64,000 bases of DNA from Folioceros fuciformis (taxonomy: Eukaryota): NCBI GenBank assembly GCA_049999805.1, contig JBNGIO010005634.1:1-64000 (forward strand), written 5' to 3'. Below, in pieces: positions 13,121 to 57,800 of the stretch. The position numbers were made by a program, and so were the translations under genes. Position 1 is the stretch's first letter. Each line of letters begins with the position of its first letter. Below the pieces are notes generated by a model. It was not told the origin of the DNA, did not search any database, and was given only the letters and a program-made list of their open reading frames with translations.

Positions 13121-13460
13121 CAACTTTGATCGACTCTTCAGGTATTCGCCCTGAATCCCGGTAGGCACTGGCAACTGAATTCCGCAAGTCCCTGAAGATC
13201 ATTGCTCAGACATCAACTCCCCGCTATGATGCTTAGGTCTCTCTGCAGAATTGCGTGGAGTGAAAGTGGCAACGTCAGGTTCTGACAAGCATTGTGACTA
13301 CTCTTCACAACAACCCAAGCGATTGCATCTGCATAGGTGTACTGATACCACCACCTTCTCCTCCTGCATCGCATATCATCTCCACATAAGTCCATTCCCG
13401 CGAAGACTTTAACCGGGCCTTTCTGTGAGATCAAGCTGCGGAGGGTGCAGGCAGGGCAAG

Positions 13461-16208
13461 ATGGCGATGCCGCGAGAGCTGCCATTGCTGCCACCGACCC
13501 TGCACCAGCAACCAGGTAAGAAGTCCAGCTCCGCAACTTTCCGAACTGCGCTTGCGGCTGAAGGAATTTCGCACAAGGAACGACAGGAGTGTTTATGGCA
13601 ACAGTTCTTTCAAGAGCCCACCGAGTGGTGTGACAACAGGTTGGACAAGAGGACTGCCCGCTGTCCTGACTTCAGGCACAAGGCGTCGAAGGAGCCCCTG
13701 TGGCTTAACAATCGATCCAAGCCTAGCTGGGTGGACTCGGAGCTGGCCAGGTTGGATGGCCGTATGAGCGAGTCTGCACGACTGGTCAAGATTTTGAGCA
13801 AACGCTGTAAGGACGCACAGGTGGGCGAGGCGGTGGACGCGTTGGAGCTACTGGAGCAGCAAGGATGTCAGGTCACTGACTCTCTCATCTGCCGTGTTCT
13901 GAACAAGTGCGAAGGAGTGGAGGATTTGGAGCTGGTTAGACGCGTTCATGCTGTTGCGGTGAGATGTGGATATGAGTCGAACGCGTTTTTGGCCAACCAT
14001 TTCATTGTCATGTATGCGTCTCTTGGTACGTTGGAGGATGCATTCGAAGTCTTCATCAAAGTGGGTGCACCCAACGTCTACGTGTGGTCTGCCATTGTAT
14101 TGGCGCATGTCCGACATGGGCAGCCCAGGAAGGGCATCGAGATATATCGTCAGCTGCGAGACGCAGGTGTGAAGCCGAATGACCGCGTCTTTGTGGCAGT
14201 GCTGAAGGCCTGCGCCGTGGCAGGGGACCTGAGCGCTGGGAAGGAGGTGCATGCTGATATGCAGGGATGTGATTTGCAAGATGATGTTTTTGTGGGCAAC
14301 AGTCTGGTTAATATGTATGCTAAGTGTGGGGGCTTGGAGGATGCTTGCAGTGTGTTCGACAAAATGGCTACAAAAGATGTGGTGTCATGGAATGCCATGA
14401 TCACAGGATATACTCAACAAGGGCAAGGACGAGAAGCCCTGGCTCTGTACGTTAGGATGCAGCAAGAGGGCATAAATCCAGCGGATCGTGTTTCGTTCGT
14501 GAGCCTTCTTCGTGCTTGTGCCAGTGTGGGAGCCTTGCAGCAAGGGATGCAGCTTCATTCGAAGGTACGTGAACTAGGCCTTGAAGCTGATGTACGAGTT
14601 GGCAGCTGCCTGGTGGACATGTATGCAAAATGCGGGAGTTTGACCGCTGCTCGGAGAGTGTTTGATAGTTTGTCCTCGAGAGATGTGGTAACATGGAATG
14701 CCATGATGACAGGCTATGCGCAGCAGTCCCGTGGTCAAGATGCCTTGGCTCTGTATTCCTTCATGGAGGAGGAGAGCATCATTGTAGCCAATGACGTTAC
14801 GTTTGCATGCCTTCTTCAAGCATGTGCTGGTGTTGGAGCGCTGCAGCAGGGAGAACGGCTCCACTGCAAGATTCGTGAACGTGGCCTAGAAGCTGACGGA
14901 GTAATCGCTAACTGCTTGGTTAATATGTACGTGAAATGCGGGAAGTTGGAGGACGCTCGCAAAGTATTTGATAGTCTGCCCACAAAAGATGCTGTGACAT
15001 GGACTGCCATGATCTCAGGATATTCTCAACACGATCTTGGAGGCGAAGCTCTCGACGTCTATGCCAGTATGCAGAAGGAGGGAATCACGCCAGCTAATAA
15101 TGTTACTTTTGCATGCCTTCTTCAAGCATGTGCGAGTGTGGGAGCGTTGCAGCAGGGCAGGCATCTCCACTCACAGATTCATTACAGGGGCCTTGAAGCC
15201 GATGCAGTCATTGGTAATTGTCTGTTGGACATGTATGCAAAATGCGGGAGCTTGGAAGAAGCTCGGAGCGTTTTTGATCGATTGCCCACAAGAGATACGG
15301 TGGCGTGGAATGCCATGCTGACTGCTTATGCAGATAATGGCAATGGTGAAATGGCAATCAAGTGTTTCAATGAGATGCTTGTCAATGGTTGCCAGCCAGA
15401 TGCAACTACTTTCATTTGTCTTTTGGTGGCATGCAGTCAGGCAGGCCTGGTGTACGAGGGCAGGAAGTACTTCGGGATGATGGGGAAGCACGGGATCCAG
15501 CCCACTGATTATCACCACAGTTGCATGGTGGATCTCCTTGGCAGGGCAGGCCATCTTGTTGAGGCCGAAAGGATACTACTAACTGTGTCATTTGCGAATG
15601 ATGTGGTGGGCTGGACAGCTTTGCTCAGCGCTTGCAAAAGCTTCGGTGATGTGGATCGTGGAACACGATGTTTTGAGCATCTCGTAGGATTGGAACCACA
15701 GGATGCAAGCCCTTATGTGCTTCTGGGTAATATGTATGCCAATGCCGGCAGGTGGGATGATGTAGATAGAATAGAAAGCTTGAGAAAGTCCTCAGGTGCC
15801 AGGAAAAAACGCGCCAAAGCTTTTATTGAACTGAGCTCCGTGGTGCACGAGTTCGCCGTGGGAGACGAGAGGTACGATATTTCAACAAAGCTTAAGAATG
15901 TGAACACGAGGTTGCAAGACGAAGGAGGTCATGTGCCCCAAACCGGGCTGGTGCTGAAGGCAGTGTCCGAGCAGGAAAAGGAGGATTCTTTGTGTGGCCA
16001 TGCAGAGAAGTTGGCATTGGCCTACGGTCTGCTCAACACACCGGATGGCACGACCTTGCTTGTCACAAAAAACCTCCGCATGTGTAGTGACTGCCACAGC
16101 AGCACAAAAATCATGTCCCGTCTGGAGAAACGAGCTGTCATTGTGAGAGATTCCCACCGAGTGCATCGGTTCAAGGATGGCTCTTGCTCATGCGCAGATC
16201 GGATTTGA
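13461..16208 (+). CDS. PLS-class PPR-DYW protein, KP/DRH-type variant (candidate U-to-C organellar RNA editing factor)
   Basis: Intronless PLS array plus E motifs, then KKRAKAFIELSSVVHEFAVG..GGHVP..LCGHAEKLALAYGLLNTPDGTTLLVTKNLRMCSDCH..RDSHRVHRFKDGSCSCADRI*. Confidence 0.92.
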   Translation: MAMPRELPLLPPTLHQQPGKKSSSATFRTALAAEGISHKERQECLWQQFFQEPTEWCDNRLDKRTARCPDFRHKASKEPLWLNNRSKPSWVDSELARLDGRMSESARLVKILSKRCKDAQVGEAVDALELLEQQGCQVTDSLICRVLNKCEGVEDLELVRRVHAVAVRCGYESNAFLANHFIVMYASLGTLEDAFEVFIKVGAPNVYVWSAIVLAHVRHGQPRKGIEIYRQLRDAGVKPNDRVFVAVLKACAVAGDLSAGKEVHADMQGCDLQDDVFVGNSLVNMYAKCGGLEDACSVFDKMATKDVVSWNAMITGYTQQGQGREALALYVRMQQEGINPADRVSFVSLLRACASVGALQQGMQLHSKVRELGLEADVRVGSCLVDMYAKCGSLTAARRVFDSLSSRDVVTWNAMMTGYAQQSRGQDALALYSFMEEESIIVANDVTFACLLQACAGVGALQQGERLHCKIRERGLEADGVIANCLVNMYVKCGKLEDARKVFDSLPTKDAVTWTAMISGYSQHDLGGEALDVYASMQKEGITPANNVTFACLLQACASVGALQQGRHLHSQIHYRGLEADAVIGNCLLDMYAKCGSLEEARSVFDRLPTRDTVAWNAMLTAYADNGNGEMAIKCFNEMLVNGCQPDATTFICLLVACSQAGLVYEGRKYFGMMGKHGIQPTDYHHSCMVDLLGRAGHLVEAERILLTVSFANDVVGWTALLSACKSFGDVDRGTRCFEHLVGLEPQDASPYVLLGNMYANAGRWDDVDRIESLRKSSGARKKRAKAFIELSSVVHEFAVGDERYDISTKLKNVNTRLQDEGGHVPQTGLVLKAVSEQEKEDSLCGHAEKLALAYGLLNTPDGTTLLVTKNLRMCSDCHSSTKIMSRLEKRAVIVRDSHRVHRFKDGSCSCADRI

Positions 16209-31084: not shown

Positions 31085-31184
31085 NNNNNNNNNNNNNNNN
31101 NNNNNNNNNNNNNNNNNNNNNNNNNNNNNNNNNNNNNNNNNNNNNNNNNNNNNNNNNNNNNNNNNNNNNNNNNNNNNNNNNNNN
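31085..31184. other. Assembly gap (100 N), probably zero-length
   Basis: ACAAGGACTAAATAACCC occurs immediately before and immediately after the gap. Confidence 0.85.
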
Positions 31185-34338: not shown

Positions 34339-35400
34339 TTAATTGAACCATTCATCCTTAAATCCATCATTATGCTCCACACACATGTTATGCAATACTA
34401 AGCATGCACTAACAACAGAAGGCACATTTTTCAACTTCATATCATTTCTCTTTAGCAAAATACGAAACCTATATTTCAACATGCCGTATGTCCTTTCCAC
34501 CACCATTTGAGTACTAGATTGAATAAAATTCCAATTGGCTTCCTCCGGTGTAAATCCATCTTCATGCCTACAGAATGGAGTTAATAGATGTCCTTGAGGC
34601 CAATAACCTGCATCTCCCACTAAGGCAAACTCATCTAGTATACCTGTTGCACATCTCTTTCCAATTTCCGACCGCTCCCACAAGTTCCAATCATTCATGC
34701 TACCTGCCCAACCGAAATCATAATCCCAAACCATTCCTTTTGCATTCACTACTAATTGAAGCAAGCAACTATGAAACCCCTTCCTACAATAATACTCAGC
34801 ATGGTACTCTTTTGGTGCTATGATGGGAATATGGCTACCATCTACTGCTCCTATAACATAAGGAATTCCTCTCAATGCCTCAAACTTAGTTGCATACATC
34901 TCCATCTTATTTTTAGATGGCCATTAGATATACACATCATGCAAGATAGCCCTAGGAGCATTGCAAAATTGTAATACGATACCTTGAACAGTAGATGTAC
35001 CATACCCATACAGGTCAGCAGGTCAGCAATAGTGGACAACCTATCCCCACCAGCCAAGCGCATTAAACTAATGGATACTCGAGCATCCACTAGGACTGCA
35101 TCTCTAGTAATTATATGTTGTTTTTGAAGTATAGGTGCCAACTTCATACAAATAAAGTCAAAGGTAGGTCTACTTAAACACATCCTGTTCTTGAACAACT
35201 CTACAGTGTATGTCCCCATAAGGCTATTGTGGAAGAACGTTTGAAATGCCTACCTCATTGTATTGCAGCATATGAACGGTAGTAGAAATACTAGCTTGTA
35301 AATTCAAAAGCAAAGAATGTGAAGTAGCTTCTAACGCCATATACAACATGATGCCCATTAGAAAAACACACCACAAGTTTTGTTCATGGCGATCCATGAT
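34339..35400 (-). pseudogene. PIF/Harbinger DDE transposase (HARBI1-like), frameshifted
   Basis: FKNRMCLSRPTFDFIC; VIGAVDGSHIPIIAP..YYCRKGFHSCLLQLVV..GWAGSMNDWNLW..LVGDAGY..NFIQSSTQMVVERTYGMLKYRFRIL..ACLVLHNMC. Confidence 0.88.
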
Positions 35401-35821
35401 AAACCCTAAGTGAAGCCCTCCACTCAAAATCCCAGCTCCAACCTCCAAGCTGCACACCTATGAGAAAAAGAAGCAAATGAAACGCCTTTGGCCGCATAAG
35501 CTAGAGCCTTATGTATACCCCTATGGGTAAAATGGTGGGTCCATGTGAAAGAGTGTGGGACCACATGTGAAAAAATATACCGGTCTTGTGAAACGAGGAA
35601 CGAGGTAAACCCCCACCGTGGCCATGCCAAGGGTGGTATGCATTGCCCACCGTGGCGGTGACACGCGCCACATGTCACTGACATGCGCTAAAAATGTATC
35701 GGGCTTATGAAACGGGCCTTAGTTTCTTTCGTACTCCTCATGATGTATACGGAATATACAGCAAGCATATATATGAAAATATATTTGTATATACCCATGG
35801 AGTCCTTGTACGTATGCATCT

Positions 35822-35976
35822 TCATTCAAAACCAAAAGCACGGGTCGAGAGTCTTTGTTCACTTCAAACCCAAAAGCATGGGTCGAGAGTCACCGCTCAC
35901 TTCAAACCCAAAAGCATGGGTCGAGAGTCACCGCTCACTTCAAACCCAAAAGCACGGGTCGAGAGTCTCAGTTCAC
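35822..35976. repeat. 38-bp tandem repeat x4 (TTCAAACCCAAAAGCATGGGTCGAGAGTCACCGCTCAC)
   Basis: Directly visible, subterminal in the putative Mutator-like element. Confidence 0.9.
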
Positions 35977-36239
35977 TGCAAACGCCTATTGCATACGAAG
36001 AGAGACAAATGCGATGAAATTGCAGTGCCTTGTGTCCTTCTCAACTTCGAATTGCGATGTCGTTGACCACATAAGTAAACCGAAATTTCCGGTTTCAAGC
36101 ATATTGGAAGGATAATGCTATTACTGGAAACACCAAATAAGAACGGCAAGTACAACATGCTTTTACAAAAGCAAACACAATTCTAGATGTAGACTGCTTT
36201 GTCTTTGTTTGAAATTGTGGTGTAGGCTATTGCGTCTTG

Positions 36240-36392
36240 CGTCTTTAACCACTCCAACCTCCGACTTCTTAATCGCTTCTTGGTCAAAGAAGCTCTTGGC
36301 AATGCTTTCAAGTGACTATGATATGCCTCTTTATTTGAATTACAATTTTGTCTAGAATGTGGCACAGTTTGCACCGCTACCAACCACATGTC
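36240..36392 (-). pseudogene. Mutator/SWIM-type transposase fragment (region with third catalytic residue)
   Basis: MWLVAVQTVPHSRQNCNSNKEAYHSHLK..KKRLRSRRLEWL resembles the MW..R..PHA.Q.TN..IE.YH..LK..RR.DWL block. Confidence 0.6.
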
Positions 36393-36555
36393 AATTATAG
36401 GATCCTATTGCTTTCGAAAATAATTCATGAATGTCAGTGCAATGGCCTGAAACTCCATGTACAAATAGGTTACAGCAGCTCGTCCTTCTTGTATGCTGCT
36501 ATTAGCATACATAATATTTGAGAAAGCCTTATACATTCGTTTCCTCCCTTTTGCA

Positions 36556-36777
36556 TCACGTACCTTTTGCAAAAGATGTCTGTGCCATGCATACTACTCG
36601 GAAGGCCTGACTGTCTGTAACTTTGAAAAAGCCTTCCATAATTTTTTCGAGGTCTTCTGATGAGAGCTCGTTGTCCCATGCTTCACTATAGTTTCCCCAG
36701 GGCAGATCAAGGATGAGCAATTTGTATAAGCGATTGCTCAAATACCCAGCCATTTCTTGCAAATCACCAATAATCAC
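36556..36777 (-). pseudogene. N4C/N6A DNA methyltransferase-like fragment (motif III-IV region)
   Basis: IIGDLQEMAGYLSNRLYKLLILDLPWG..AWD resembles beta-class 'hhhGD..E.h..h....hDLhhTDPPYG...WD'. Confidence 0.55.
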
Positions 36778-37390
36778 CTAATACTCCACTTTTTGCTTAC
36801 TACTCGGCACTTAGAATGTGGATACTTTTTCATCGTTGTCTTCCTCCGCAAGTTCGCGTTGCAGGTCTTCGACTCATTTCTAGTTCCTTGCTGCATTTAT
36901 ATGCTCTTTGAAGCTATCGGGGATAATTTTTTCTTTGTACTCCTAAATTTTTCTTTGTACTTAGTGTATACAAACAAACAAACAAACTGGTCAAACCACA
37001 ATGGTTATGGCAACTAGCGCAAACTTGTGTGCACCAGGGGTGGAGATCAACAAGTTGAAGATAGCATTTCTTACAATGTGATAAAAAAGCTGGCTAAATT
37101 TGGTGATATCCTCTGGTGTCAAATGCTTGGGGTACTCTTCCTCCACTTTTGCAAATGAGGCGCATTGCAACCCAAAAAAAAAGTGGTTTGAATAATATTT
37201 AACTTCTTCGCTTTTATTATCCAAGTTTTCATCCCGCTGATCATGAGTTCACCTTGGATGACTTTCTCCAAAGCCGACATCATGATACAATCCCCTGCTT
37301 CTCCAGGTGGCATGCCGTGGAAAACTCTCCATGCAGTCGCATGCATAGGTCTAATGATGAGAAAATGAAGAGAATCTCTTCATTTTGGAT

Positions 37391-37638
37391 AAACAACTTT
37401 TTTCTATCTTAGTTTTTGATGATTATTTCAATGGAATTCTCATTGCTAGGGTACTCACAGACTCAGACTCGGGAGCTAGTGAAGTGGTTAATTACATGCA
37501 CTTCAAATCCACATGTTATCGAAGCATCCTACGTGGACTCCTTCCTCCTTTCTTGTTGATGATTGCCGAGCTGAAATAAATGCTATTCGAATAGCCTTTG
37601 CCGAGAGTATGCCCGTGTATTTATGTTTGTGGCATGTT
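37391..37638 (+). pseudogene. MULE transposase core fragment (frameshifted)
   Basis: LFSILVFDDYFNGILIARVLT.. then, in another frame, WTPSSFLVDDCRAEINAIRIAFAESMPVYLCLWHV*, with the second catalytic Asp and the CxxH signature of Mutator DDE domains. Confidence 0.75.
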
Positions 37639-37639
37639 T

Positions 37640-37830
37640 GATCCTTACCAAAAGCCACTTGGATTGATGGTACTCCTATTCGGGCTCTTTAGCGACATAG
37701 GGGAGTGGGTGATAGATGGGTGTTCTGGTAGCAGTAGCGGAGTCTTGGCCACACTATTGGAAGGTCACAATTGTATCGCCATCAACATGGAACAGCGGCA
37801 TACAATCTTTATCGAACAGAGAATAACTGG
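37640..37830 (+). pseudogene. N4C/N6A DNA methyltransferase-like fragment (motifs X-I-II, SAM binding)
   Basis: DPYQKPLGLMVLLFGLFSDIGEWVIDGCSGSSSGVLATLLEGHNCIAINMEQRH resembles 'HPxQKP..Lh..hh..hS..GD.VLDPF.GSGT..hAA...GR.hhGhE'. Confidence 0.7.
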
Positions 37831-38159
37831 ACATGAAGTGTTTTCATCGGACAAAGAAGAGTTGATGACAAAGCCGCATAGTCAGGGGCACTCATTATTC
37901 TTTGCCCGTGAGGTTACAAGTGGGAGTTCTGTTAGACAACGAGCTCAAACACTGCAAATGGTGCATGGGAACACTGCACATTTGGATCTCTTAATCTCAA
38001 GGCCACGCAAAGAAGAAGACTAAGGGGAAAGGCAAGGAGAGAGCAAACACGGAAGCGGAGGAGAGCGCAAAGGAACTTGAGCAACATCCCAGTGTTGAGC
38101 AATGGGAGCCTGATCATTTTGAGACATTCTCGAACACAGCTTCACCGGTAAGAAATGCA

Positions 38160-41100
38160 TGTTAATGTATGTATCTAACCCTAGTGTAGATACAGGTCCA
38201 GGTCGTAGGTTAGACTAACAACTCTAGCGGTTAGTAACCGCTCGTCGCATGCTCATGTCACCGGCGTGTACTACATTCTTAATGCTAATCCTCCTACGCC
38301 TACCGGCCTTCCGCGCGTGCTGATACATGTCATGGTATCAGAGCTACAATCATCTCGATTCCCGGTCTGATTTAATCAATCACGATTATGCAACATGGCG
38401 CTGGAATTCTCTCCAACCCCTGGTGAATTTTTCCAGTCACGTTGTGTTGTGCTTGCATCTCGGACCTGGTTCCACGCAATGGCCACTTTTCTAGTGGCAG
38501 GCTTGCACGGCGCCTTTTCTTCGCCAACCTGAGCGTTGCTACCTCGGTTGTGCTGCTGTTACAAATGCATCTGGGGATTCATCTCTGGAGAATGTCGACG
38601 GCAGCAAGCGAGGGTTGGTGACAATGCCTGGTTTGCAAAAACAATAGCGCCTAGCAAGGAGAGCCAGTATCCAGCAAGCACTGCGAGACTGGGAACGCAG
38701 GCAGGAGGAGGCTTACATGTGTCCTCTTGCACCCACGCGATGGCAACAGGTTTGGGTACAAATATGCATCATTTGTGAACTAATGGCCACGAACATTGTA
38801 CAAGGTTATCCAGCCCTCGATGGATATGACTGGGGTAAGATAGATGTGTTGGATTTACTTTGAACGCCATCCTGCTCCCTGAAGGCAGAGTGGTTGAGCC
38901 TGAAGTCCTAAGGGGCAGTCGAAGATCATGGCCCAGCAGCAGACTCCTCAACTCCATGCAATCAATATACCAAAGGAGGACAAGTTCGATGGTACTAATT
39001 ATCATGTATGGCAGAAAAGTATGGAGGAGATTCTCAAATCGAGAAAACTTTGGGCACATGTTTACGGTGTGGGTACACCTCCCGTACCCACACCCAAGCC
39101 AGGTGCTGGAGCCACACCAGAACAAGTAGCTAGTTGGGAGGAAGCTGACCAGTTGGCACGCACCTTACTGCACTTCAGCGTCAAGAGTAGCCATACTGGA
39201 GTATTCCAAGGCGCTGAAGAGAATGCAGCCGCCTGGTGGAAACAGATTAAAGCATTGTACGATTCGAGGGATCTCATGCTGCAAACCTTTGTACTCAAGC
39301 AGTTCATGGGTCTGAAAATGAAGGAGTCAGACTCTGTTGATCAGCATGTCCTCGAGTTTCGTAACTCTCGAGCACGAGTGGCATCTGTAGGCTTTAACAT
39401 TGAGGAGGAGCTCCTGGCTGTCATTCTCCTCACCACATTGCCCGAGACTTGGTCAAGTGTGGTTCAGGGCCTGCAAGGAATTCAAGCCATCTCAGTAAAT
39501 CGGGTGATAGCAGCCATGCTTACAGAAGAATCTCGAAGGAAGATTGCAAGTTCGTCTCTCTCAGGAGGAGAAGACAAGGCCCTATGGACGGGCAGACCTG
39601 GAAGAGGTCGAGGACGTGGACGTCCCTTTGTAAGAGGCAGGGGCAGAGGCCGAAGCATGCCCCCTAGGTCTCCAGGTTTTGGCAGCAGCAAAGGCAAGCC
39701 ACCATGTGGGTTCTGCGGGATGACCAACCATACTTAGGAAGTGTGTCGAAAGAGGCTGGCTGGAGAAGGTGGACACTCGGGGCACCTAGCTGTGACCATG
39801 CACAAGTACAGTCGAGCTTTCTGTACTAGTGTCATTTCCGACACTAAAGTGACCTCACCTCGAGATCACATGTGCAACGTGGCCACCTGTTTTGCAAGTC
39901 AACTTGACCACACATGGTACATTGACCGCGGAGCCTCGCAGCATATGACTCCTCATGCTGCATACTTTACTGAATTGACTGAGTGTGAGACTGCCAAGTT
40001 TGTGTGTTTGGGAGATAACTCACATCATGCCATTGTAGGCCAGGGCACCATTCGGCTAGACTTGAAGCATGACCAACACTTGGAAATACCTAATGTCCTC
40101 TATGTGCCAGGACTTGCCAAGAATCTTGTTTCAGTTCGCAAAATCGACGAGTCGGGCTGCTTTGTGTGCTTTGGAGGCAGCAAGTGCGTAGTAGAAACCA
40201 AGGAAGGCACCCTCTTGGCCACTGGCCACCTACAGGAAGACGATCTCTATCACCTCGACCTTCAGGATGCAAAGGCATACTCAGCAGGAGGCAGCTCACA
40301 TTACGCCAAACCATCACTTACGTATCTGTGGCATCTTCATCTAGGTCACGTTAACTTTCGCAAGCTCGTCACCATGTGCAAGACAAACTGGTGGATGGCA
40401 TTACTTTGGATAGTTTGCAAGACTTTGGAGTCTGTGCGGCGTGTGTTTTGGGCAAACACAAGCGGTCACCTTTTCCTGTTGACACGGCCACCCGAGCAAT
40501 GGAGCTTTTAGGCCTTGTGCTTAGCGATGTCTGTGGCAAACTTCCAGTTTCTTTAGGAGGGCATGAATACTTTACCACATTCATTGATGACCTCTCCCGA
40601 TTTTGCGTGGTTTACTTCCTAAAGCACAAGTCCAAGACCTTCACATGTTTTGTTGAGTACAAGGCCTAGGCTGAGACACAGACTGGACATCGTTTGAAAG
40701 TGTTGAGGTCTGATAATGGCGGGGAGTACATCTCTCGTGAGTTTGATGCCTTTTGCAAGGAGCCTGGAATCGGCAGGCAACTGACCAATCCCTACACCCC
40801 GCAACAAAATGGGGTTTCTGAAAACAAGAACCGGTCTTTAGAGACATCAGCCACAAGCATGCTGCAGTATGCAAATTTGCCTAAAGCCTACTGGGCAGAA
40901 GCCGTGGCTTATGCAGCTTATATTCAGAACAGAATAGCACACAAGGCAGTGAAGGGCAAAACTCCTTACGAACTCTGGACAGGCAGGAAGCCAAACCTCT
41001 CCCATTTACGTGTGTTTGGCTCATCCGTGTATACACAGATACACAAGGACCTGCGCAGAAAATTCGAGCCTAAGTCTAATCATTGCATCTTCATCGGCTT

Positions 41101-43590
41101 TACTGAAGGCATAAAAGGCTTCAAAGTGCTCAATAGACGAACCCGAGCCGTCACTCACTCTCGGGACGTGGTGTTTGTCGAAGGTGTGGAGTCTCAACAG
41201 CCAGTGGGAGCACCCTTGCCTACGTCTTCTAGCTCGGATGACGATTCTGCACATGAAGAGGAGGAGGAGCTGATGGTTGGAAACATACCAGTACCTCTTC
41301 CTGCAGCACCGGTAGCACCTGTGGTACCTGCTGGACCAACAGTACCGCAGTCACCACAAATGCATACACCATTAAGGACACCTGGACGCATTGTCAGTAG
41401 TAGAAACCCACATGACATACCTTCGGCCGAGTCATTGCATTTTGAAGAGGCGGAGACAATAATCCCGTCAGCTCCGCCAGTTGGACAGAACAGAAAGAAG
41501 GATAAGCATCCTCATTTCGAGACGAGGCAATCACAGAGGACGCGCAGACTCTCCGACTTCTATGTGCCAGAAGACTTTCGGTACTCAAAATCACATTTGA
41601 CCTACTGCCTAGCTGCCAATACTGTGCTGTATGAACCTCCTACTTATGAAGAAGCACTCCGCTGCCCTGATGCTGAGCACTGGCACAAAGCTATTCAGTC
41701 TGAATTAGCCTCCCTGTACGAGAACCAAACATGGACAATTGCCAGTCTCCCTGCAGATAGGAAGCAAGTGGGCAGTAAGTGGGTTTTCAAAATCAAACTA
41801 AAAGCTGACGGAAGTATTTCGAGGTACAAAGCAAGGCTAGTCGCAAAAGGGTATTCGCAAATACCCGGGGTGGACTATGATGATACATTTAGTCCTGTAG
41901 TTAAGCTAAATACCTTGCGGATGTTTGTTGCCCTTGCTGCGGTCAACAATCTCGAGCTGGAGCAGCTCGACGTCACCACAGCATTCCTGTATGGGAACTT
42001 GCAAGAGGAGATTTATATGCAAATCCCTGCAGGAGTATTAGTACCAGCGAACGTGCCTCGTCCAGTATGCAAGCTTAGGAAGACATTGTATGGGCTTAAG
42101 CAAAGCCCCCGAGCATGGTATGAACGCATTCATACGTACCTGACAGAGCTTGGATATGCAAACTTGCATGCTGATAGCAATGTGTACGTTAAGCAAGAAG
42201 GAGGAGATTTTCTGGCACTCGCCATCTATGTGGATGACATCATAATACTTAGCAATTCCCATAGAATGATTTTCGAGCTTAAGGATCACCTGAGAAGAGC
42301 GTTTAAGATCACTGAGGCTGGTGCACTGGTGTACTGCCTTGGTATGCAGTTACAGCGAAACCGAGGTGCAGGGACTATCTTCCTGCATCAACATTCATAT
42401 GCGCTGCAGATTTTAGTTAGGTACGGCATGCTAGGATGCAAACCCATTGCAACTCCAATTGAGCAGAACGTTAAGTATGTACAACAAGTTGGAGAGATAC
42501 CCTCTGAGGATGCTGAGTATGTCGAACTCTACCCGTCGAAGAATGGGAGCCTGATGCATCTCATGATTGGGAGCAGACCTGACTTAGCATTCACCTCCGG
42601 CTTAGCATCAAGGTTCGTGTCGAACCCCAACAGAACACATGTAGACCTGATGACAAGGATCTACAGATATGTATCTGGAACAGCAGACTGGGGAATTCTC
42701 TACAGTGCAAAAGCGAAAGAAGCCCTGCACCTGACTGCGTACAGTGATGCTAACTGGGGTGGCGACCCAGACAGCCGCAAAAGTATCTCCAGCTATGTGA
42801 TGATCCTGGCTGGAGGTGCAATCTCATGGAGTAGCTGTAAGCAGACCACAATCGCACTCTCCTCTACGGAAGCAGAATACAAAAGCCTGACAGAAGCGTG
42901 CAAGGAAATTACATGGTCAGTGGGAGCGTTGAGGGAGCTTGGCATACCACAGGAGCTTCCAATTGAGCTGCTATGCGACAACCAAAGTGCGATAGCTCTG
43001 TCCTTGAATCCGCGCTTCCACGCCAGGACGAAGCATATCGGCATTGAACATCAATATATCCGAGAAACCATTGCTCAAGGTCTGGTAACGATCTCTTACT
43101 GCCCCACTGAAGCCATGATCGCAGATATTCTCACGAAGGCACTTGGACGCGTCAAGCATTACGAGCATGCAAGCAACATGGGGCTGAGGTCTGCCGGCAA
43201 ACCGTTGAGATGGAGTGTAACTGCTGATCAGAGAGTGCGCCTAGAAGCGAAGACTGAAGTCTGAAGAGTGTTGACAGTTGTTAGGGCTGACGAGTTTCTT
43301 TCAATAATGTCAAGTTTCTATAGATTAGGTTAGCGCTTCTCAGCTAAAAACTATACAAAACAACTATAAACTATATATATATATAAACATATCCTAACTC
43401 TAGACCTGAGTGGGAGTGTTAATCTATGTATCTAACCCTAGTGTAGATACAGGTCCAGGTCGTAGGTTAGACTAAAAACTCTAGCGGTTAGTAACCGCTC
43501 GTCGCGTGCTCATGTCACCGGCGTGTACTACATTCTTAATGCTAATCCTCCTACGCCTACCGGCCTTCCGCGCGTGCTCGATACATGTCA
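38160..43590 (+). mobile_element. Full-length Ty1/Copia LTR retrotransposon (coding region disrupted)
   Basis: TG..CA LTRs at 38160-38332 and 43417-43590; TSD ATGCA on both sides; PBS TGGTATCAGAGC at 38333-38344; purine tract before the 3' LTR; gag-PR-IN-RT-RH order. Confidence 0.97.
38928..43264 (+). pseudogene. Copia gag-pol polyprotein with two premature TAG stops and a frameshift
   Basis: Gag KFDGTNYHVW and zinc knuckle CGFCGMTNH; protease WYIDRGASQHM; integrase LRSDNGGEY and TPQQNGVSE; RT YKARLVAKGY, QLDVTTAFL, LYGLKQSPRAW, IYVDD; RNase H YSDANW and ADILTK. Stops at ~39737 and ~40669, frameshift near 40380. Confidence 0.93.
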
Positions 43591-44049
43591 ATGCAAACGA
43601 GCTAGAAGAGTCAAATATGGGCAGAGAGAATGAGGAGAGAGAGGATGAAGTTATTGTCCCCATGACGAAACGACCATAATCTCCACAAATTCAAAGTTAG
43701 GATTCACCGATAGGTAGGATGCAAAGTTGCAATCCGCAGAGGCACGGACTTAGGCACCCTAGGAACCTACTGTGCTCTTTTATGTGTGTAAATTTGGTAA
43801 AACCTTAATGGACATTGTGTGCTTGCCATAACGAGATCCTTCTGACAAGAGTTGTTTCGAATACGCGGACGGCATGCAGTTTAGGGTTACTAACACTAGA
43901 TGTGCAATATGACATGTTTTTGGGATGGAAAGGGATGAAATTTGGTAGGTAGGAAAGACTAAATGCGGCTTTCTGGAGGAAGCCAATTTATTTCAGACAC
44001 CATTAGAACACCAAAGTTAACAAGCTTCTATAATGTGACTCTAAACTTA

Positions 44050-45000
44050 GATATCACATGCCAGGTACTCACTTTCCATTTGTTGGTCCCAAAGGTTGCA
44101 TACATAGACAATACATTATTTGTCCCCCATTTGACAAGCATCTCCTCTTGGAAAGGTGTTTGTATCCCTAAGGAAAACATAGAATGTTCTCCCGAGAAGT
44201 GAAACACAATGTCCTTGTGCATAGCTATCCACAAATGGACATTATCCTCATCACGAGCAGCCAAGGCAAAGAAGTGAGCACATGCTTCTCTTGCAATATT
44301 GTCAACATCCTTTCCAATAAGACAATTATCTCGTGAAGGCGTGAGAGTAGCTAATCTGCTGCCCATGAACTGAATACTCATTATCTCTTCATAGTCTGTA
44401 AGAATTTGGGCTCTTGGCACCTTGAAAAACACCCTGTGCTTCACCCAATTCCGAATATCCTTCGATAAGTGAGGAGACAAGTGAGTTGGGGTCTCACATG
44501 GTTGACCGTGACAAAATTGGCCATTACTATCCACATTGGAGCCCACAAAAACCTTAATCTGAGCAACATCAGGCCACACCAAGAGCTGTCGTACCTCAAA
44601 ATTATATTGGCACCCCCTTTTGATGTTGTCCCCATGTTTCACCTTTAACCGTCTGTTGCCCATGCCAGCCTTTAGTTTGTTGGTGAGCTCTGTAAACACT
44701 TGTGTCCCTGTTAAACGCTTGTTTTCGGGGCCCATATGCACAAAAATGTTTATACAATCTTACATAATAGCAATGAAGTGTGCATTGGGCACGACAAAAT
44801 AGAGCTGCTCTGTTCATAGGGGTGTGAGGAGTGTGACATTAAATGTGTAAATTTGTTGGAAAGCCTTCCAAGGTTTCCTCCCCTTTCACAAAATCAGTAA
44901 CTCTCTCAAAAGGAATGAAAGAGACTCGCACATTCCTACAACAACTACCATATCTCTACTGCTCATGCATCCATTTGAGTTCTTGTTGTGTGAAGAGGCC
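44050..45000 (-). pseudogene. Mutator/SWIM-type transposase N-terminal part
   Basis: FIPFERVTDFVKGEE..FPT; KRGCQYNFEVRQL; HLSPHLSKDIRNWV; RDNCLIGKDVDNI; FSLGIQTPFQEEMLVKWGTNNVLSMYATFGTNKWK (first catalytic D appears mutated to Y). Confidence 0.7.
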
Positions 45001-45061
45001 CAACTGACGTTGTGAGAGGGCCTAGATGGTAGGCCAAGGAATTATTTGAGAGGATGCCTCA

Positions 45062-45552
45062 TTAGAACTGTAGAACATAGGAACATGCAATGCAAGTGAA
45101 TGACATGCAAGGGTCAAAGATGAGTGCGAGGACACGGGGAGGGGGAGAATTCATGGATTGTAGTCGCACCTTGAATTCTTTGCCATTCTTAGGAAGTGGA
45201 ATTTGATGCAAAATTCCACTGCAAACAAATCAACTATTATTCAAGTACTTTTCATGGGCACTCTTTCCATCTTCAGCACACACCTGCTCTTTAAATAGCT
45301 CTCATGCCACATTAGAATTGCAAAACACGGGAACATGTAATACAAGTGAATCGCATGCAAGGGTCAAAGATGAGTGTGAGGAAATGTTGGGGGGGAGAAT
45401 TCATGGATTGCAAGTGCACCTTGAACTCTCTGCCATTCTCAGGAAGTAGAATTTCATGCAGAATTCCACGGCAAACAGATCAACACCTATTCAGGTGCTT
45501 TTCATGGGCACACTTTCTATCTTCAATACACACCTGCTCTTTGAATAGCTCT
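45062..45552. repeat. Diverged ~250-bp tandem duplication
   Basis: Two related copies of GAACATG..CAAGTGAAT..CATGCAAGGGTCAAAGATGAGTG..CACACCTGCTCTTT..ATAGCTCTC. Confidence 0.8.
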
Positions 45553-46471
45553 CTAATGAGTCTCCATCCCATGCATCCTTATTCAGTGTCCACTGCAATT
45601 TCATTGTCTGCTCTCGTTTGTAAATGCTCCACGCATTCCTCAATATCCATTCAGTAAGTACATTGTCATCCGTTGCGAGAAAATGTTCAGCAGCTCACGA
45701 TCACGTTCAATTAACTGAGGGCAGGGTTTCAGTCTGTATGCTATAACCTTAGGGCACATTTCTGTATTCCATATACGTCATAACAAATCGGTGACCTGTA
45801 TGAGAGAAACTAACAAGTTCCCGGTGACTTGTATCCATTTGCACCTCCTCTAGCTTGCTGCACAGCTTTTGTCACCTCATTAAAACTTCGAAGTATTTAG
45901 GAGACGGGTATTTAGGAGATGGGACCCTCAGGTGCATGCGTTTAGGATTCCGTCATTCCCATACTGCTAGGTACGAGTTAGAGCGGCATGTGCACTTCTT
46001 GTTTTGAAGGGTTCTTGTGTTGTTATTAGGGATATGGATGTTGGTTAAAGATTGAGATCAAGGTTAGGATTATGATTAGGATTTTGTCATTAGGGATAGG
46101 GGTTTAGGGTCGAATGAGAACAATATGGATTTGAATTCTTGTGGTAACTTGGAAGTGTTACTAACTAACACACCTTTTTCAGTGTAGCTTCTTAAGTTAG
46201 GGTTATTTAACCATACTGACCTAAGATGGGTTTCTTCTCAATATGACATTCTAGGGCACTAGGACAGCAAAAACATGTGAGGGTTGCTCACATACTCTTT
46301 ATGCATAAGCATCAATAGGCATACAGTCTAGAAGTTGAGCAACAACAAATAAGTCTAAACATGGTCTACGTTCTAACCGAAGTTAGAACAAAATAAATCT
46401 ACGTCCTAATTGAAGTTGTTCATACTTTGAGAACAAAATAGGTTTGCCCCTTCAAATTGTTGAGTCCAGTT

Positions 46472-46827
46472 GGTCCCTATAATTGTATCCTTTACAAGCC
46501 TATGAAGACAATATTGAAGATAGATCCCTATAGTTGTGCCTTTACAAGCCTAGGAAGGCAATATTGAAGATAAGTCCCTATAGTTGTGTCCCTTACAAGC
46601 CTAGGAAGGCAATATTGAAGATAGGTCCCTATAGTTGTATCTTTTACAAGCCTATGAAGACAATATTGAAGATAGGTCCCTATAGTTGTGTCATTTACAA
46701 GCTTATGAAGGCAATATTGAAGATAGGTCCTTATAGTTGTGTCCTTTACAAGCCTATGAAGGTAATATTGAAGATAGGTCCCTATAGTTGTGTCCTTTAC
46801 AAGCCTATGAAGGCAATATTGAAGATA
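46472..46827. repeat. 51-bp minisatellite (~7 copies; GGTCCCTATAGTTGTGTCCTTTACAAGCCTATGAAGGCAATATTGAAGATA)
   Basis: Directly visible; 17-aa periodic ORFs on both strands. Confidence 0.95.
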
Positions 46828-46983
46828 GCCCTCCTGCAAAGTGGGGACAGTTTCAACTAACGTAGGGAACCATGCAATTAGAGGAAGAATTTAAACCTTT
46901 AGCAATTTCATAACTTCAAACATTCTGAGAATCCAACTCCTCCTTGTATGTGTTTTCTGAAGTGCCACTTTGTGAGGTTTACG

Positions 46984-48494: not shown

Positions 48495-48594
48495 NNNNNN
48501 NNNNNNNNNNNNNNNNNNNNNNNNNNNNNNNNNNNNNNNNNNNNNNNNNNNNNNNNNNNNNNNNNNNNNNNNNNNNNNNNNNNNNNNNNNNNNN
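48495..48594. other. Assembly gap (100 N) next to a 39-bp tandem repeat
   Basis: N run followed by CAAGTACAAGTGCTTGCGAA..TACAAATCACCCC x2. Confidence 0.95.
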
Positions 48595-54800: not shown

Positions 54801-57800
54801 TTACATTCTGAGTCCTGGTAGTGAATTCAGGAGACTTTTACAACGGGAGGTGACAGTCGCCTGGAGGAATAAGTTTTCTCTGGGTCTACGCCTATTTCAG
54901 GTCTGTTCTCCCAAGTTTTGACTGCCCGCATGATTTTCATAGCTGCAGCATTACTTTGCATAACCGTTGTACATTTCTAAGCTCGTGTTACTGTTGTGCA
55001 GATACTTTTGATGAGCTTGTTCACAGGTTTCATCTTCTTCCGTGTGCGAAATAAACCGAAGCAAAATAATATGAATTTGTTACGGGGCTCATATTTTGTC
55101 TCACTTCTGAACATGACGTTGTTCAATCTGGGACAAATCCCTGTTTTGATGGAGGAGAGGGCAATTTACTACAAGCAGCAAGGCCAACACTTCTATCGTC
55201 CCTCAACTTTCCTGTTTGCAAAGATTTTTGGAAGCATGCCAGTTTCGTTGGCTGAGGTACAGCTCTTATTCTGATTCTTGCTGTCACTTTGGTACGTTAG
55301 TCCCTCTAGGTCTTCTAATTGCTTCCCTTGGTCTTCCAGGCAACAGTGTGGACCTTGATAGTGTATTACACGACGGGCCAAACTTTGTCGGNNNNNNNNN
55401 NNNNNNNNNNNNNNNNNNNNNNNNNNNNNNNNNNNNNNNNNNNNNNNNNNNNNNNNNNNNNNNNNNNNNNNNNNNNNNNNNNNNNNNNNNNNNNNNNNNN
55501 NNNNNNNNNNNNNNNNNNNNNNNNNNNNNNNNNNNNNNNNNNNNNNNNNNNNNNNNNNNNNNNNNNNNNNNNNNNNNNNNNNNNNNNNNNNNNNNNNNNN
55601 NNNNNNNNNNNNNNNNNNNNNNNNNNNNNNNNNNNNNNNNNNNNNNNNNNNNNNNNNNNNNNNNNNNNNNNNNNNNNNNNNNNNNNNNNNNNNNNNNNNN
55701 NNNNNNNNNNNNNNNNNNNNNNNNNNNNNNNNNNNNNNNNNNNNNNNNNNNNNNNNNNNNNNNNNNNNNNNNNNNNNNNNNNNNNNNNNNNCCACAGCCT
55801 TGGTCATAAACGAATTCAACTCTGGTAGCTTCAGCATGCTCTGTGGGGACATACCCAATATCTTAAATCTGCCTCAGTGTAATGGCCGACCCGAGAACAC
55901 CATTGGTCATGCATACTTGGCGAGAGGTCAATTCTACACCGGATACCATTGGATCGGTATCGCAGTGGCTTGCATCCTTGGCTGGATAGTCCTTTTCAAC
56001 ACATTGGCGTATCTCGCACTCGCCAAAATCAGGCATGTTGAACCACCTCGGGTACCCGACAATCGCCAGGCAAGTGTTTTGTGGATGCCAATGCTGGAAA
56101 TTTCCAAGTCGTCAATGTGGGGAGTGTGCTGTTGGTCTCACTGTGGTTGGTTTTCTGTTCGTTCTTCTCAGCATAAGCATAACAGCTCCATGCAAGTTGC
56201 AGCGGAAGATGTGGAATGGGCAGAAGCTGCAAGGCAGAAGCTTACCCATACAGCTGTACCTGTGACTCTGTCCTGGCATGAACTCAGCTTCGATATTTTC
56301 ATACCCCAAATCCAAGAAACTCGATCCATTTTGAAGTATGTATCTGGTTGGGCAGAACCCGGTGACATGCTCGGCATATTGGGTTGTACAGGTTCAGGGA
56401 AGACAACTCTGCTCAACTGCCTTGCAGGTTCTCCACCTTTCTGGTAGCTTGGGTGTGTCGTTTGTCTTTCTCCAGGGCTCTGGACTTCACACTTCTGTAT
56501 CTGTTGCTGTGCAGGACGCAAAGTGGACTTGTCCAGGGTAGGAGGGCAAATATTAGTCAACGGGTTCCCTCGAAATCAGAAAACTTTCTCAAACGCTGTC
56601 GGATATGTTGATGTTTTCGAGGCCTACCCACCTTACATGACTGTAAAAGAAGCAGTTGCTTTCAGTGCAACTATGAGCCTTGGCAGGCACTCGACAGCTC
56701 AGAGCCGTAGAGAGTTTGTTGAAGAGGTAGTCCAATCATATCAGCCCACCCTTATCGCTTGTAAGTGCCAATGCTCTTGTCTTGGATAGAATGTTGACGA
56801 CCTATGGGTTCCCTGGTTAGATATTGAGCCTCGTGGAAATCAAGCACTTCGAAGACGCATTGGTGCTCTCCTTGGGCGAGAATGTGTTGGCGAAAGACCG
56901 GGCTGTGCGAATGGCTATAGCGTCAGAACTGGCGTCTAATCCAAGTGTCATTTTCCTTGACGAACCCACAAAGGGACTGGATACCCAGGCTGCGGTACAC
57001 GTGATCGATTCTCTTCGGGTACGTGTGGAGTATAACGTGCTGAATGAAGCAAGCTTGTTGGAAGTTCAGTGTGTGACCTTTGACTGGATGCTCCGCAGCA
57101 TATCGCAGCAACAGGAAGGACCATAATTAGTACTTTGCAACATCCAAGTCAGAGACTGCTCTCAGCATTCACGAACGTCACGGTTTTGAAGAAGGGTGGA
57201 TCAATTGTTTATTTTGGTTCAGTTGGCAAGAATGGCAACTATCTGCGGGTATGTCGTTGAGCTTATGCGAGCATTCCTCATGTTCATGCGAAGTATTTCT
57301 GACAAATTGCCGGGCACCATGACCTTTGATCGTTGCGCTGCAGGAGTATTTTGAAGCCATCCCAGGCACACCTCTGTGCCCTCCAAACAAGAATGCTTCC
57401 ACCTTTGCTATCGATGTGATAGGAGATGGTGTGGCCAATCTGGTCGCCGTCAAGGACTATGCGTTCGAGTACCGAGTGAGTGATCTGGCTCTAAACAACC
57501 ATGTGAACCTGCAGAGATTGCGACGGGATAAGACTGGTCCTGAACTCATGGGAACGGGTTACCGTGCATCGCAAGGACAAATGTTGGCGGAGGTTGTGAT
57601 TAGGATGCAGAAAATGTATTGGAGAAACGTGAACTACAGCTGGGCGCGGATGATGTTTGTGACGGTCATGGGTTTATTACTCGGCTCCGTCTACTTTGAT
57701 GCAAAGTACCTTACAACGCCGAAAATGAATAAAAGGGCCTTCAGTATCTTCATATCGTGTGTGCTTATGGGCATCACCAATGCTCAGAACGTGATACCAC

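Follow-up and report, generated by a model that had tools for sequence, protein, structure and literature searches.

We find that a 64-kb stretch of nuclear DNA from Folioceros fuciformis (contig JBNGIO010005634.1, positions 1 to 64,000; hereafter the window) holds fragments of a gene for a beta-class amino-methyltransferase (MTase)-like protein among the remains of a Mutator-like element (MULE) transposase gene, and that one of the fragments abuts the transposase coding sequence directly. The best reading of this locus, which we adopt with modest confidence, is a Pack-MULE-like capture of MTase gene fragments by a MULE transposon. Through the fragments we also found a family of eukaryotic beta-class amino-MTase-like proteins that is apparently undescribed and distinct from DN4MT1 and N4CMT. 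The locus itself is a dead chimera that changes little, being one more gene-fragment pick-up by a DNA transposon, here in a non-seed or early-diverging plant lineage; the family revealed by the fragments is the more useful by-product and the part worth following.

Methyltransferase fragments among transposase remains

An initial annotation of the window had proposed that two decayed peptides are the two halves of an amino-MTase of the beta class, in which the motifs run in the permuted order IV, X, I. Both peptides are present: the open reading frame (ORF) 36556-36777 on the minus strand reads VIIGDLQEMAGYLSNRLYKLLILDLPWG...AWD..., and the ORF 37595-38023 on the plus strand contains DPYQKPLGLMVLLFGLFSDIGEWVIDGCSGSSSGVLATLLEGHNCIAINME. 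A profile built from eight full-length relatives of the family described below was searched against every six-frame ORF of the window, and it matches exactly two of them, M2 (E 2.3e-25) and M1 (E 5.3e-12; Table 1), the next ORF reaching E 2.2. From these values both pieces lie well above chance and represent complementary halves of one family, which upholds the proposal. M2 is furthermore matched by phmmer to the protein P0002 at 48% identity (E 1.5e-12 in 1.8 billion proteins). Direct comparison with Pfam N6_N4_Mtase (PF01555) yields less: the plus-strand piece scores below the cut-off (E 0.017, 15.5 bits against 26.7), the scan of the minus-strand piece 36556-36777 returned no MTase match, and the link to this Pfam family runs through the family profile instead. 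The top PDB sequence match of the plus-strand piece is a putative modification methylase of Thermus (E 1.2), while those of M1 are designed helical repeat proteins only and were rejected as spurious. Such non-significant direct Pfam and PDB scores would suit a resemblance that arose by chance in junk ORFs, but the profile and phmmer E-values, together with the mapping of the pieces onto complementary halves of the same proteins, make that explanation vanishingly improbable.

The equivalent of motif IV in M1 is DLPWG (36694-36708), which, set against (D/S/N)PP(Y/F/W), keeps the Asp, the second Pro and the aromatic residue and has lost the first Pro. M1 is also matched in tblastn by residues 60-131 of P0002 and by P0021 and P0045, and an in-frame stop (36778-36780) lies inside the homology. 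A splice acceptor before M1 was considered and rejected, as the homology continues through the upstream stop codon; a donor-like GTACGT after M1 is suggestive at most. M2 contains motif X as YQKP (near 37646-37657) and motif I as DGCSGSS (near 37715-37735), where CSGSS, compared with CSGSG in the relatives, has the second glycine replaced, a loss consistent with decay.

The third piece, M0, represents a linker domain. When a linker profile (P0026/P0035/P0048) was searched against all window ORFs, the best two matches were 37379-37122(-) (profile 20-56, E 0.022) and 37248-36994(-) (profile 59-91, E 3.1). As both matches are individually weak, the case for M0 rests on adjacency and order: M0 and M1 are collinear on the minus strand and keep their native order and spacing. 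We considered 37260-37286(-), which matches the middle region of P0021 at 8 of 9 residues, as the missing middle third of the MTase, and rejected it, as it aligns better in the linker M0 and has no family-profile match. Family profile positions 107-205, the middle third, are absent from the whole 64-kb window. The same search over all six-frame ORFs found no MTase homology in the window beyond the transposon parts, and a ParB-like domain profile gave nothing above noise. Nor does one polypeptide of the window have the permuted order IV...X, I: the halves lie on opposite strands, and with the inversion described below undone the order is X/I and then IV, with profile positions 107-205 missing. 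Nothing at the locus is able to encode an enzyme, so the MTase fragments are inert.

The surrounding transposase had been described as Mutator/SWIM-type. Remains that appear to be of MULE type are present, and no SWIM domain was matched in the four ORFs scanned for it (35973-36404). Within T2, the ORF 37492-37641(+) matches Pfam MULE (PF10551) over profile positions 59-96 of 99, at an E-value of 0.0024 and 18.7 bits that fall below the cut-off of 27.6. For T1, the ORF 44028-44759(-) matches P0070 database-wide at E 2.4e-10. P0070 belongs to a multi-copy transposase-like cluster of six near-identical proteins on separate contigs of another data set, and such a cluster is transposon-like. T1 ends at a donor-like AAA/GTGAGT (exon end 44073); five of the six cluster members stop just past the ATFGTNKWK motif, P0077 being cut short before it, and four of the five continue as unrelated residues, which suggests a conserved intron after this motif. 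Atlas features for T1 name ZSWIM1-3_RNaseH-like/MULE/FAR1 clusters and serve as leads only. Pfam returned no match for T1 or for P0070, a word-indexed protein search with T1 found no longer proteins and one cluster only among proteins of near length, and PDB sequence searches with T1 and T3 gave nothing meaningful.

The candidate T3, judged by its motif pattern, presumably resembles the post-MULE region of MULE-derived proteins. It has no Pfam match, even when read through with X at the stop, and no usable Atlas match. Pfam found nothing relevant in 10 further ORFs around T3 and T1, and no family, SWIM included, in four ORFs between 35973 and 36404, where Cys-rich remnants picked out by eye are not evidence. 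A contig joint of 36474 with 44304 (see below) supports placing T1 and the T3-side DNA left of 36474 in one repeat.

The two sets of remains meet where T2 joins M2. The last position of the MULE match is 37638, the first of the MTase profile match is 37640, in another reading frame, and this coding-to-coding junction leaves no room for a gene boundary. Once the nested copia element is removed and the inversion reversed, the parts follow each other on the minus strand as T1, a short intron remnant, T2 joined to M2, a spacer of ~0.7 kb, M0-M1 joined to the candidate T3, and 38-bp tandem repeats. From M2 the distance is ~0.7 kb to the linker M0 and ~1.2 kb to the N-terminal half M1, and the MTase block, ~1.7 kb long, presents the gene order M0-M1-(middle)-M2 in rotated form.

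Table 1. Positions of the MTase fragments, transposase remains and associated features in the window.
Feature	Position	Strand	Description
M1	36556-36804	-	MTase N-terminal catalytic part; family profile 44-107
M0	37072-37286	-	linker domain, found in long relatives upstream of the MTase domain; split by a frameshift
M2	37640-37957	+	MTase AdoMet (S-adenosylmethionine)-binding C-terminal part and C-terminus; family profile 205-308
T1	44031-44759	-	transposase N-terminal part up to ...ATFGTNKWK; BLASTP to P0070 E 2e-20, 27% over 219 residues
T2	37394-37641	+	MULE transposase domain, C-terminal part, ...YLCLWHV and stop; one frameshift
T3 (candidate)	36186-36593	-	putative post-MULE transposase continuation; one in-frame TAG
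Nested Ty1/copia long terminal repeat (LTR) retrotransposon	38160-43590	+	LTRs 38160-38332 and 43417-43590; target-site duplication (TSD) ATGCA at 38155-38159 and 43591-43595
Inverted segment	37379-44005		inverted relative to at least one other copy in the species; joint 37378/44005
Left claimed terminus	35740-35756		15/17 inverted match to 45765-45781
Right claimed terminus	45765-45781		15/17 inverted match to 35740-35756

Other forms of the locus and the case for fragment capture

The evidence on other copies comes from contigs of public runs under the same species label, chiefly of two DNA runs. Two contigs of run X1 and one of run X2 have the uninverted form, in which 37378 meets 44005 on the opposite strand. 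Window-identical contigs exist as well, and one of them (36154-37563) spans the left inversion breakpoint. A joint of 38153 with 43594, with four other letters between, is a copia-free site in a non-identical copy or allele. The contig with the joint of 36474 and 44304, which has 32 intervening letters of other sequence and a strand relation that the table of joints leaves unstated, looks like an internally deleted derivative without any MTase piece. Contigs of ~87% identity cover 44138-45849, including T1 and the region upstream of it, and the summed depth over the element is 25-59 against ~12 for window-identical contigs; the genome thus holds repeated, variable copies, as expected of a MULE. 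In addition, an opposite-strand joint of 44795 with 45860 is present in contigs of three runs, from which a stretch of ~1 kb upstream of the transposase start is inverted here relative to the others, or the reverse.

The copia element that separates the parts of the chimera has LTRs of 173 bp (repeat D3 at 98%), with 11 differences in 191 aligned columns, flanks included. Pfam identifies Retrotran_gag_2, Pol_BBD, rve and RVT_2 domains, and a protease-like barrel is present. The element is young-looking, with a perfect 5-bp TSD, long open gag and pol frames and TGGTATCAGAGC directly after the 5' LTR, which we take to be a tRNA-Met-type primer site. The summed depth of related contigs, up to ~240 against ~12, marks it as a member of an abundant family.

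We suggest that the transposase gene of a Mutator-like transposon was interrupted by ~1.7 kb copied from an MTase-like gene. As the block is rotated and lacks the middle third, the simplest source would be a tandem pair of genes, copied from the 3' half of the first through the spacer into the 5' half of the second. The block may have been copied in as filler or through template switching in transposon gap repair, which is the mechanism proposed for Pack-type capture. The copia insertion, with its 5-bp TSD, and the inversion of 37379-44005 came afterwards.

Alternatively, the MULE family could carry the amino-MTase as a true passenger gene, with this copy scrambled by later rearrangements. This would agree with the transposon parts on both sides of the MTase pieces and with at least one further copy or allele that has MTase-flank and transposon sequence across the same joints, and the MTase-like family, being multi-copy and partly degenerate in Adiantum and patchy in range, two echinoderms included, would suit a mobile gene. 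Reasoning from the block order, however, turning two intact genes into the uninverted arrangement T1-T2/M2...M0-M1/T3 requires at least two inversions and a deletion, the junction of T2 and M2 lies inside both coding regions, no TIR (terminal inverted repeat) or TSD defines one element, and no MULE domain (PF10551) is found in the relatives (0 of 16 scanned with Pfam, 0 of 21 with precomputed domains). We regard this alternative as very unlikely. The initial reading of a transposon that carries its own MTase is not supported: in this copy the MTase is incomplete, rotated and wedged in one base past the MULE match, and the relatives scanned lack the transposase domain.

A second alternative is that a resident host MTase-like gene, or a tandem pair of such genes, was struck by a MULE and then shuffled. 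The native order and spacing of M0 and M1 speak for it, as do the several rearrangement joints and a neighborhood that is a transposon dump (a Harbinger-type element at 34339-35249, and the copia). On the other hand, a simple insertion would put transposon ends, not coding sequence, against the gene; instead the MTase pieces border on the interior of T2 at one end and on repeat-family DNA (left of 36474) at the other, and MTase homology is found nowhere in the window beyond the transposon parts. This last observation also led us to reject a tandem duplicate of an MTase gene with an inserted MULE. We consider the resident gene unlikely, and keep to the capture of gene fragments.

The 17-bp inverted termini that had been claimed to bound the element did not stand up. 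Their score of 11 falls within the best scores of 30 shuffles (9-14), and no TSD flanks either these termini or a slightly larger inverted match, the flanks being different. A second, collinear match of 14/16 (35719-34 with 45798-813) lies just outside them, and this adjacency is mildly suggestive (p ~0.02, by a rough estimate, for two of the five best matches being adjacent). Among gapped inverted alignments the best, with a score of 34 that 2 of 100 shuffles reach, is at another place.

Several points weigh against the capture of fragments by a MULE. The MULE match (E 0.0024) is below the Pfam cut-off and SWIM is not matched; as neither TIRs nor a TSD could be demonstrated, weak domain matches have to carry both the extent of the element and its assignment to Mutator. 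Since T3 is without tool support, what speaks for an interruption of the transposase ORF by the block is the evidence from T2 together with the 36474/44304 joint. It may be that the uninverted and empty-site contigs represent the second allele and not paralogues, and they would then be no evidence of a spread of the chimera. Finally, the patchy range of the MTase-like family, in streptophytes and echinoderms, would also fit a gene that is usually carried by mobile elements.

The methyltransferase-like family

The plus-strand ORF was searched exhaustively with HMMER against 1.84 billion representatives; this returned 48 proteins at E<=1e-3, three of which (P0001, P0007 and P0009) are low-complexity false positives that were matched by the ORF tail and have no MTase domain. 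All 16 relatives scanned with Pfam have PF01555 above the cut-off, at 29.8-128 bits, and in P0045 the match spans profile positions 3-218 of 221. Intact relatives are 288-446 aa long; in P0002 (323 aa), P0003 (288 aa) and P0004 (446 aa) the N-terminal half aligns with the minus-strand peptide of the window and the C-terminal half with the plus-strand peptide. The permuted motif order IV, X, I holds in the intact relatives. Motif IV of the family is D[ILFAV]P[YHR]G (DLPRG, DIPYG, DIPHG, DAPYG, DFPYG and DVPYG in relatives), motif X is [NS]PYQKP and motif I is D-x-C/F-S/A-G-S/T-G. Prokaryotic relatives have DPPYG or DIPYG as motif IV and HPTQKP as motif X.

Named members were found in nine clusters when 29 family proteins were looked up, and come from Ginkgo biloba (Gb_37443), Adiantum nelumboides (MCO5611298.1, MCO5604154.1 and MCO5559057.1), Chara braunii (GBG75370.1 and GBG77312.1), Riccia sorocarpa (KAL3685543.1), Holothuria leucospilota (KAJ8049666.1) and Patiria miniata (XP_038062583.1). 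The range of the family thus takes in a charophyte, a liverwort, a fern, a gymnosperm, a sea cucumber and a sea star. In Adiantum the family is multi-copy and partly degenerate, one of the three proteins being without motif IV. P0071 and P0017 are the echinoderm members (sea cucumber, sea star) of this plant-type family, and the sea-cucumber protein has a ParB-like N-terminus and the linker. The joint presence in echinoderms and plants hints at transfer or mobile carriage, and the patchy range raises the question of how the family spread.

A tree was built from a 78-column C-terminal block with 52 rows; transposase proteins, the three false positives, near-duplicates and any row without motifs X and I were excluded. 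In this tree 33 rows of eukaryote type part from 19 of prokaryote type, with a split support of 97/96. M2 groups with P0002, P0004 and P0010 (89/81, not a starred branch), and its branch length of 1.09 against a median of 0.27 is as expected of a decaying fragment. The initial annotation had called the enzyme prokaryote-type; taken to mean a fresh transfer, this is contradicted by a eukaryote clade of its own that extends from charophyte to gymnosperm and includes echinoderms.

The AlphaFold model of P0002, which stands for the family and not for the window fragments (18-row alignment, pLDDT 72.9, pTM 0.75), was compared with the PDB by Foldseek. All matches listed to rank 37 are beta-class N6A/N4C DNA MTases or the putative methylase TTHA0409 (E 2.6e-12 to 2.3e-08), and they include CcrM, M.MboIIA, M1.HpyAVI, N4CMT (rank 7), M.BceJIV, M.RsrI and M.PvuII. 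NCBIfam gives CcrM-type adenine methylase matches for the family, all of them sub-threshold, DIPYG and DLPYG are present in prokaryotic relatives annotated as adenine-specific methylases, and SPPY at the motif IV position is absent from the relatives aligned. According to the available part of the N4CMT paper, specificity is not readable from the N6_N4 domain, and such domains have switched repeatedly between N6-methyladenine (6mA) and N4-methylcytosine (4mC) (PMC8885841). Active members of the family, if there are any, would be candidates for the enzymes that deposit 6mA or 4mC in the DNA of plants and echinoderms; the DLPRG type may turn out inactive.

In a word-indexed profile search 9 of 21 proteins were bacterial or phage-type fusions of ParB (PF02195) and PF01555. 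The long eukaryotic members P0022, P0023, P0026 and P0035 have a ParB-like N-terminal region (a weak DUF6551 match in P0022) followed by the linker domain. One could speculate that the ParB-linked family regularly rides on DNA transposons or viruses and passes between distant eukaryotes, the locus being the relic of one carrier. We find this highly doubtful; if true, it would supply a means by which amino-MTases enter plant genomes. Scans of viral contigs (with P0021) and metagenome contigs (with P0014 and P0008) for loci that encode relatives confirmed none. A literature search found no paper on the family or on a MULE with an amino-MTase; supplements, which lie outside such a search, may list such genes.

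Surroundings of the locus and comparison with known systems

The window is from a plant-like eukaryote, has a GC content of ~0.4-0.5 and contains several transposons. Directly left of the chimera, at 34339-35249 (-), lie PIF/Harbinger-type transposase remains (DDE_Tnp_4 E 5e-29, Plant_tran), which form a separate element. The stretch 35500-35693 has a ~88% match to a 7.2-kb contig (depth 45) of the possible RNA run X4, and is another repeated element left of the chimera, perhaps a transcribed one. Tandem repeats flank the transposon remains at 35825-35976 (38-bp x4), 45054-45553 (250-bp x2, 85% alike) and 46490-46879 (51-bp x6 or more), and could either belong to the element as subterminal repeats or be satellites unrelated to it. 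Farther away, two long intronless DYW-type pentatricopeptide repeat (PPR) genes stand head to head at 10265-13198 (-) and 13413-16208 (+); the plus-strand gene, the one scanned, has PPR repeats, an E motif and DYW_deaminase. Assembly gaps (N runs) at 31085-31184 (100), 48495-48594 (100) and 55392-55791 (400) do not touch the chimera. No run listed publicly as holding RNA contains the stretch, a negative that is uninformative on expression. In run X3 the contigs over 35500-46000 show differences that are nearly all C>T (573) and G>A (539), a pattern as in a bisulfite- or enzymatically converted library that could be used for reading 5-methylcytosine at the locus.

Among enzymes of known structure, the family shares the motif order IV, X, I with the beta-class MTases CcrM (6pbd), M.MboIIA (1g60), M1.HpyAVI (5hfj), M.RsrI (1eg2) and M.PvuII (1boo); its members exceed the PF01555 cut-off, and the predicted fold of P0002 matches structures of these types at E 2.6e-12 to 2.6e-09. 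It differs from them in having D[ILFAV]P[YHR]G and not (D/S)PPY, and [NS]PYQKP and not HPTQKP, in forming a separate eukaryote clade, and in the ParB-like N-terminus and linker of some members. Phage and bacterial ParB-N6_N4 fusions ("DNA modification methylase") are the nearest prokaryotic relatives, and the long eukaryotic members share their ParB-like N-terminus; these fusions, however, keep DPPYG and HPTQKP, and the window is without a ParB-like piece.

Marchantia MpDN4MT1 and the bdelloid N4CMT (structure 8s9o) are, like the family, eukaryotic proteins of the same Pfam family with beta-class topology. MpDN4MT1a/b is described, in the part of the report available, as having the TSPPY motif typical of N4C enzymes (bioRxiv 10.1101/2021.02.12.428880). 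The family and the window, with its DLPWG, are without this TSPPY, and it is by the motif as described there, not by sequence comparison, that DN4MT1 is set apart. For N4CMT, the accessible text reports a chromodomain and no eukaryotic homologues (PMC8885841). Acquisitions are named for Marchantia and Adineta only in the excerpt of another study (PMC12344493), and land plants show few N6A-MTases according to the portion available of a third (PMC4738411).

The same portion of that third study notes that DIRS1 retrotransposons contain inactive MTase domains and that in Trichomonas genes of Dam type lie close to transposons (PMC4738411). As described there, the DIRS1 domain is similar to the present case in being an amino-MTase-like domain, thought inactive, in a eukaryotic transposon; it differs in being PCIF1-like and not permuted, and in being a polyprotein part in every copy rather than a fragment.

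Autonomous Mutator elements can contain a second gene, as in maize MuDR with mudrA and mudrB and in Kaonashi-type MULEs with a ULP1-like protease. Their passengers are whole, separate ORFs between TIRs, and are the model that the idea of a passenger MTase resembles. The MTase of the window, in contrast, consists of three fragments, rotated and fused to a broken transposase.

Gene-fragment capture by Pack-type DNA transposons is described in the part of a published study that was available (PMC6379663). The locus is similar to Pack-MULEs and other Pack-type elements in that non-functional host-gene fragments lie in arbitrary order and orientation within Mutator-related DNA, with at least one further form of the chimera in the genome. 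Pack-MULEs differ in being short and without a transposase, with long TIRs and TSDs of 9-11 bp, whereas at this locus transposase remains are present, the block sits within the coding sequence of the transposase, and neither a TIR nor a TSD could be demonstrated. The locus thus resembles the capture process that gives rise to Pack-MULEs, and not the defined Pack-MULE element type.

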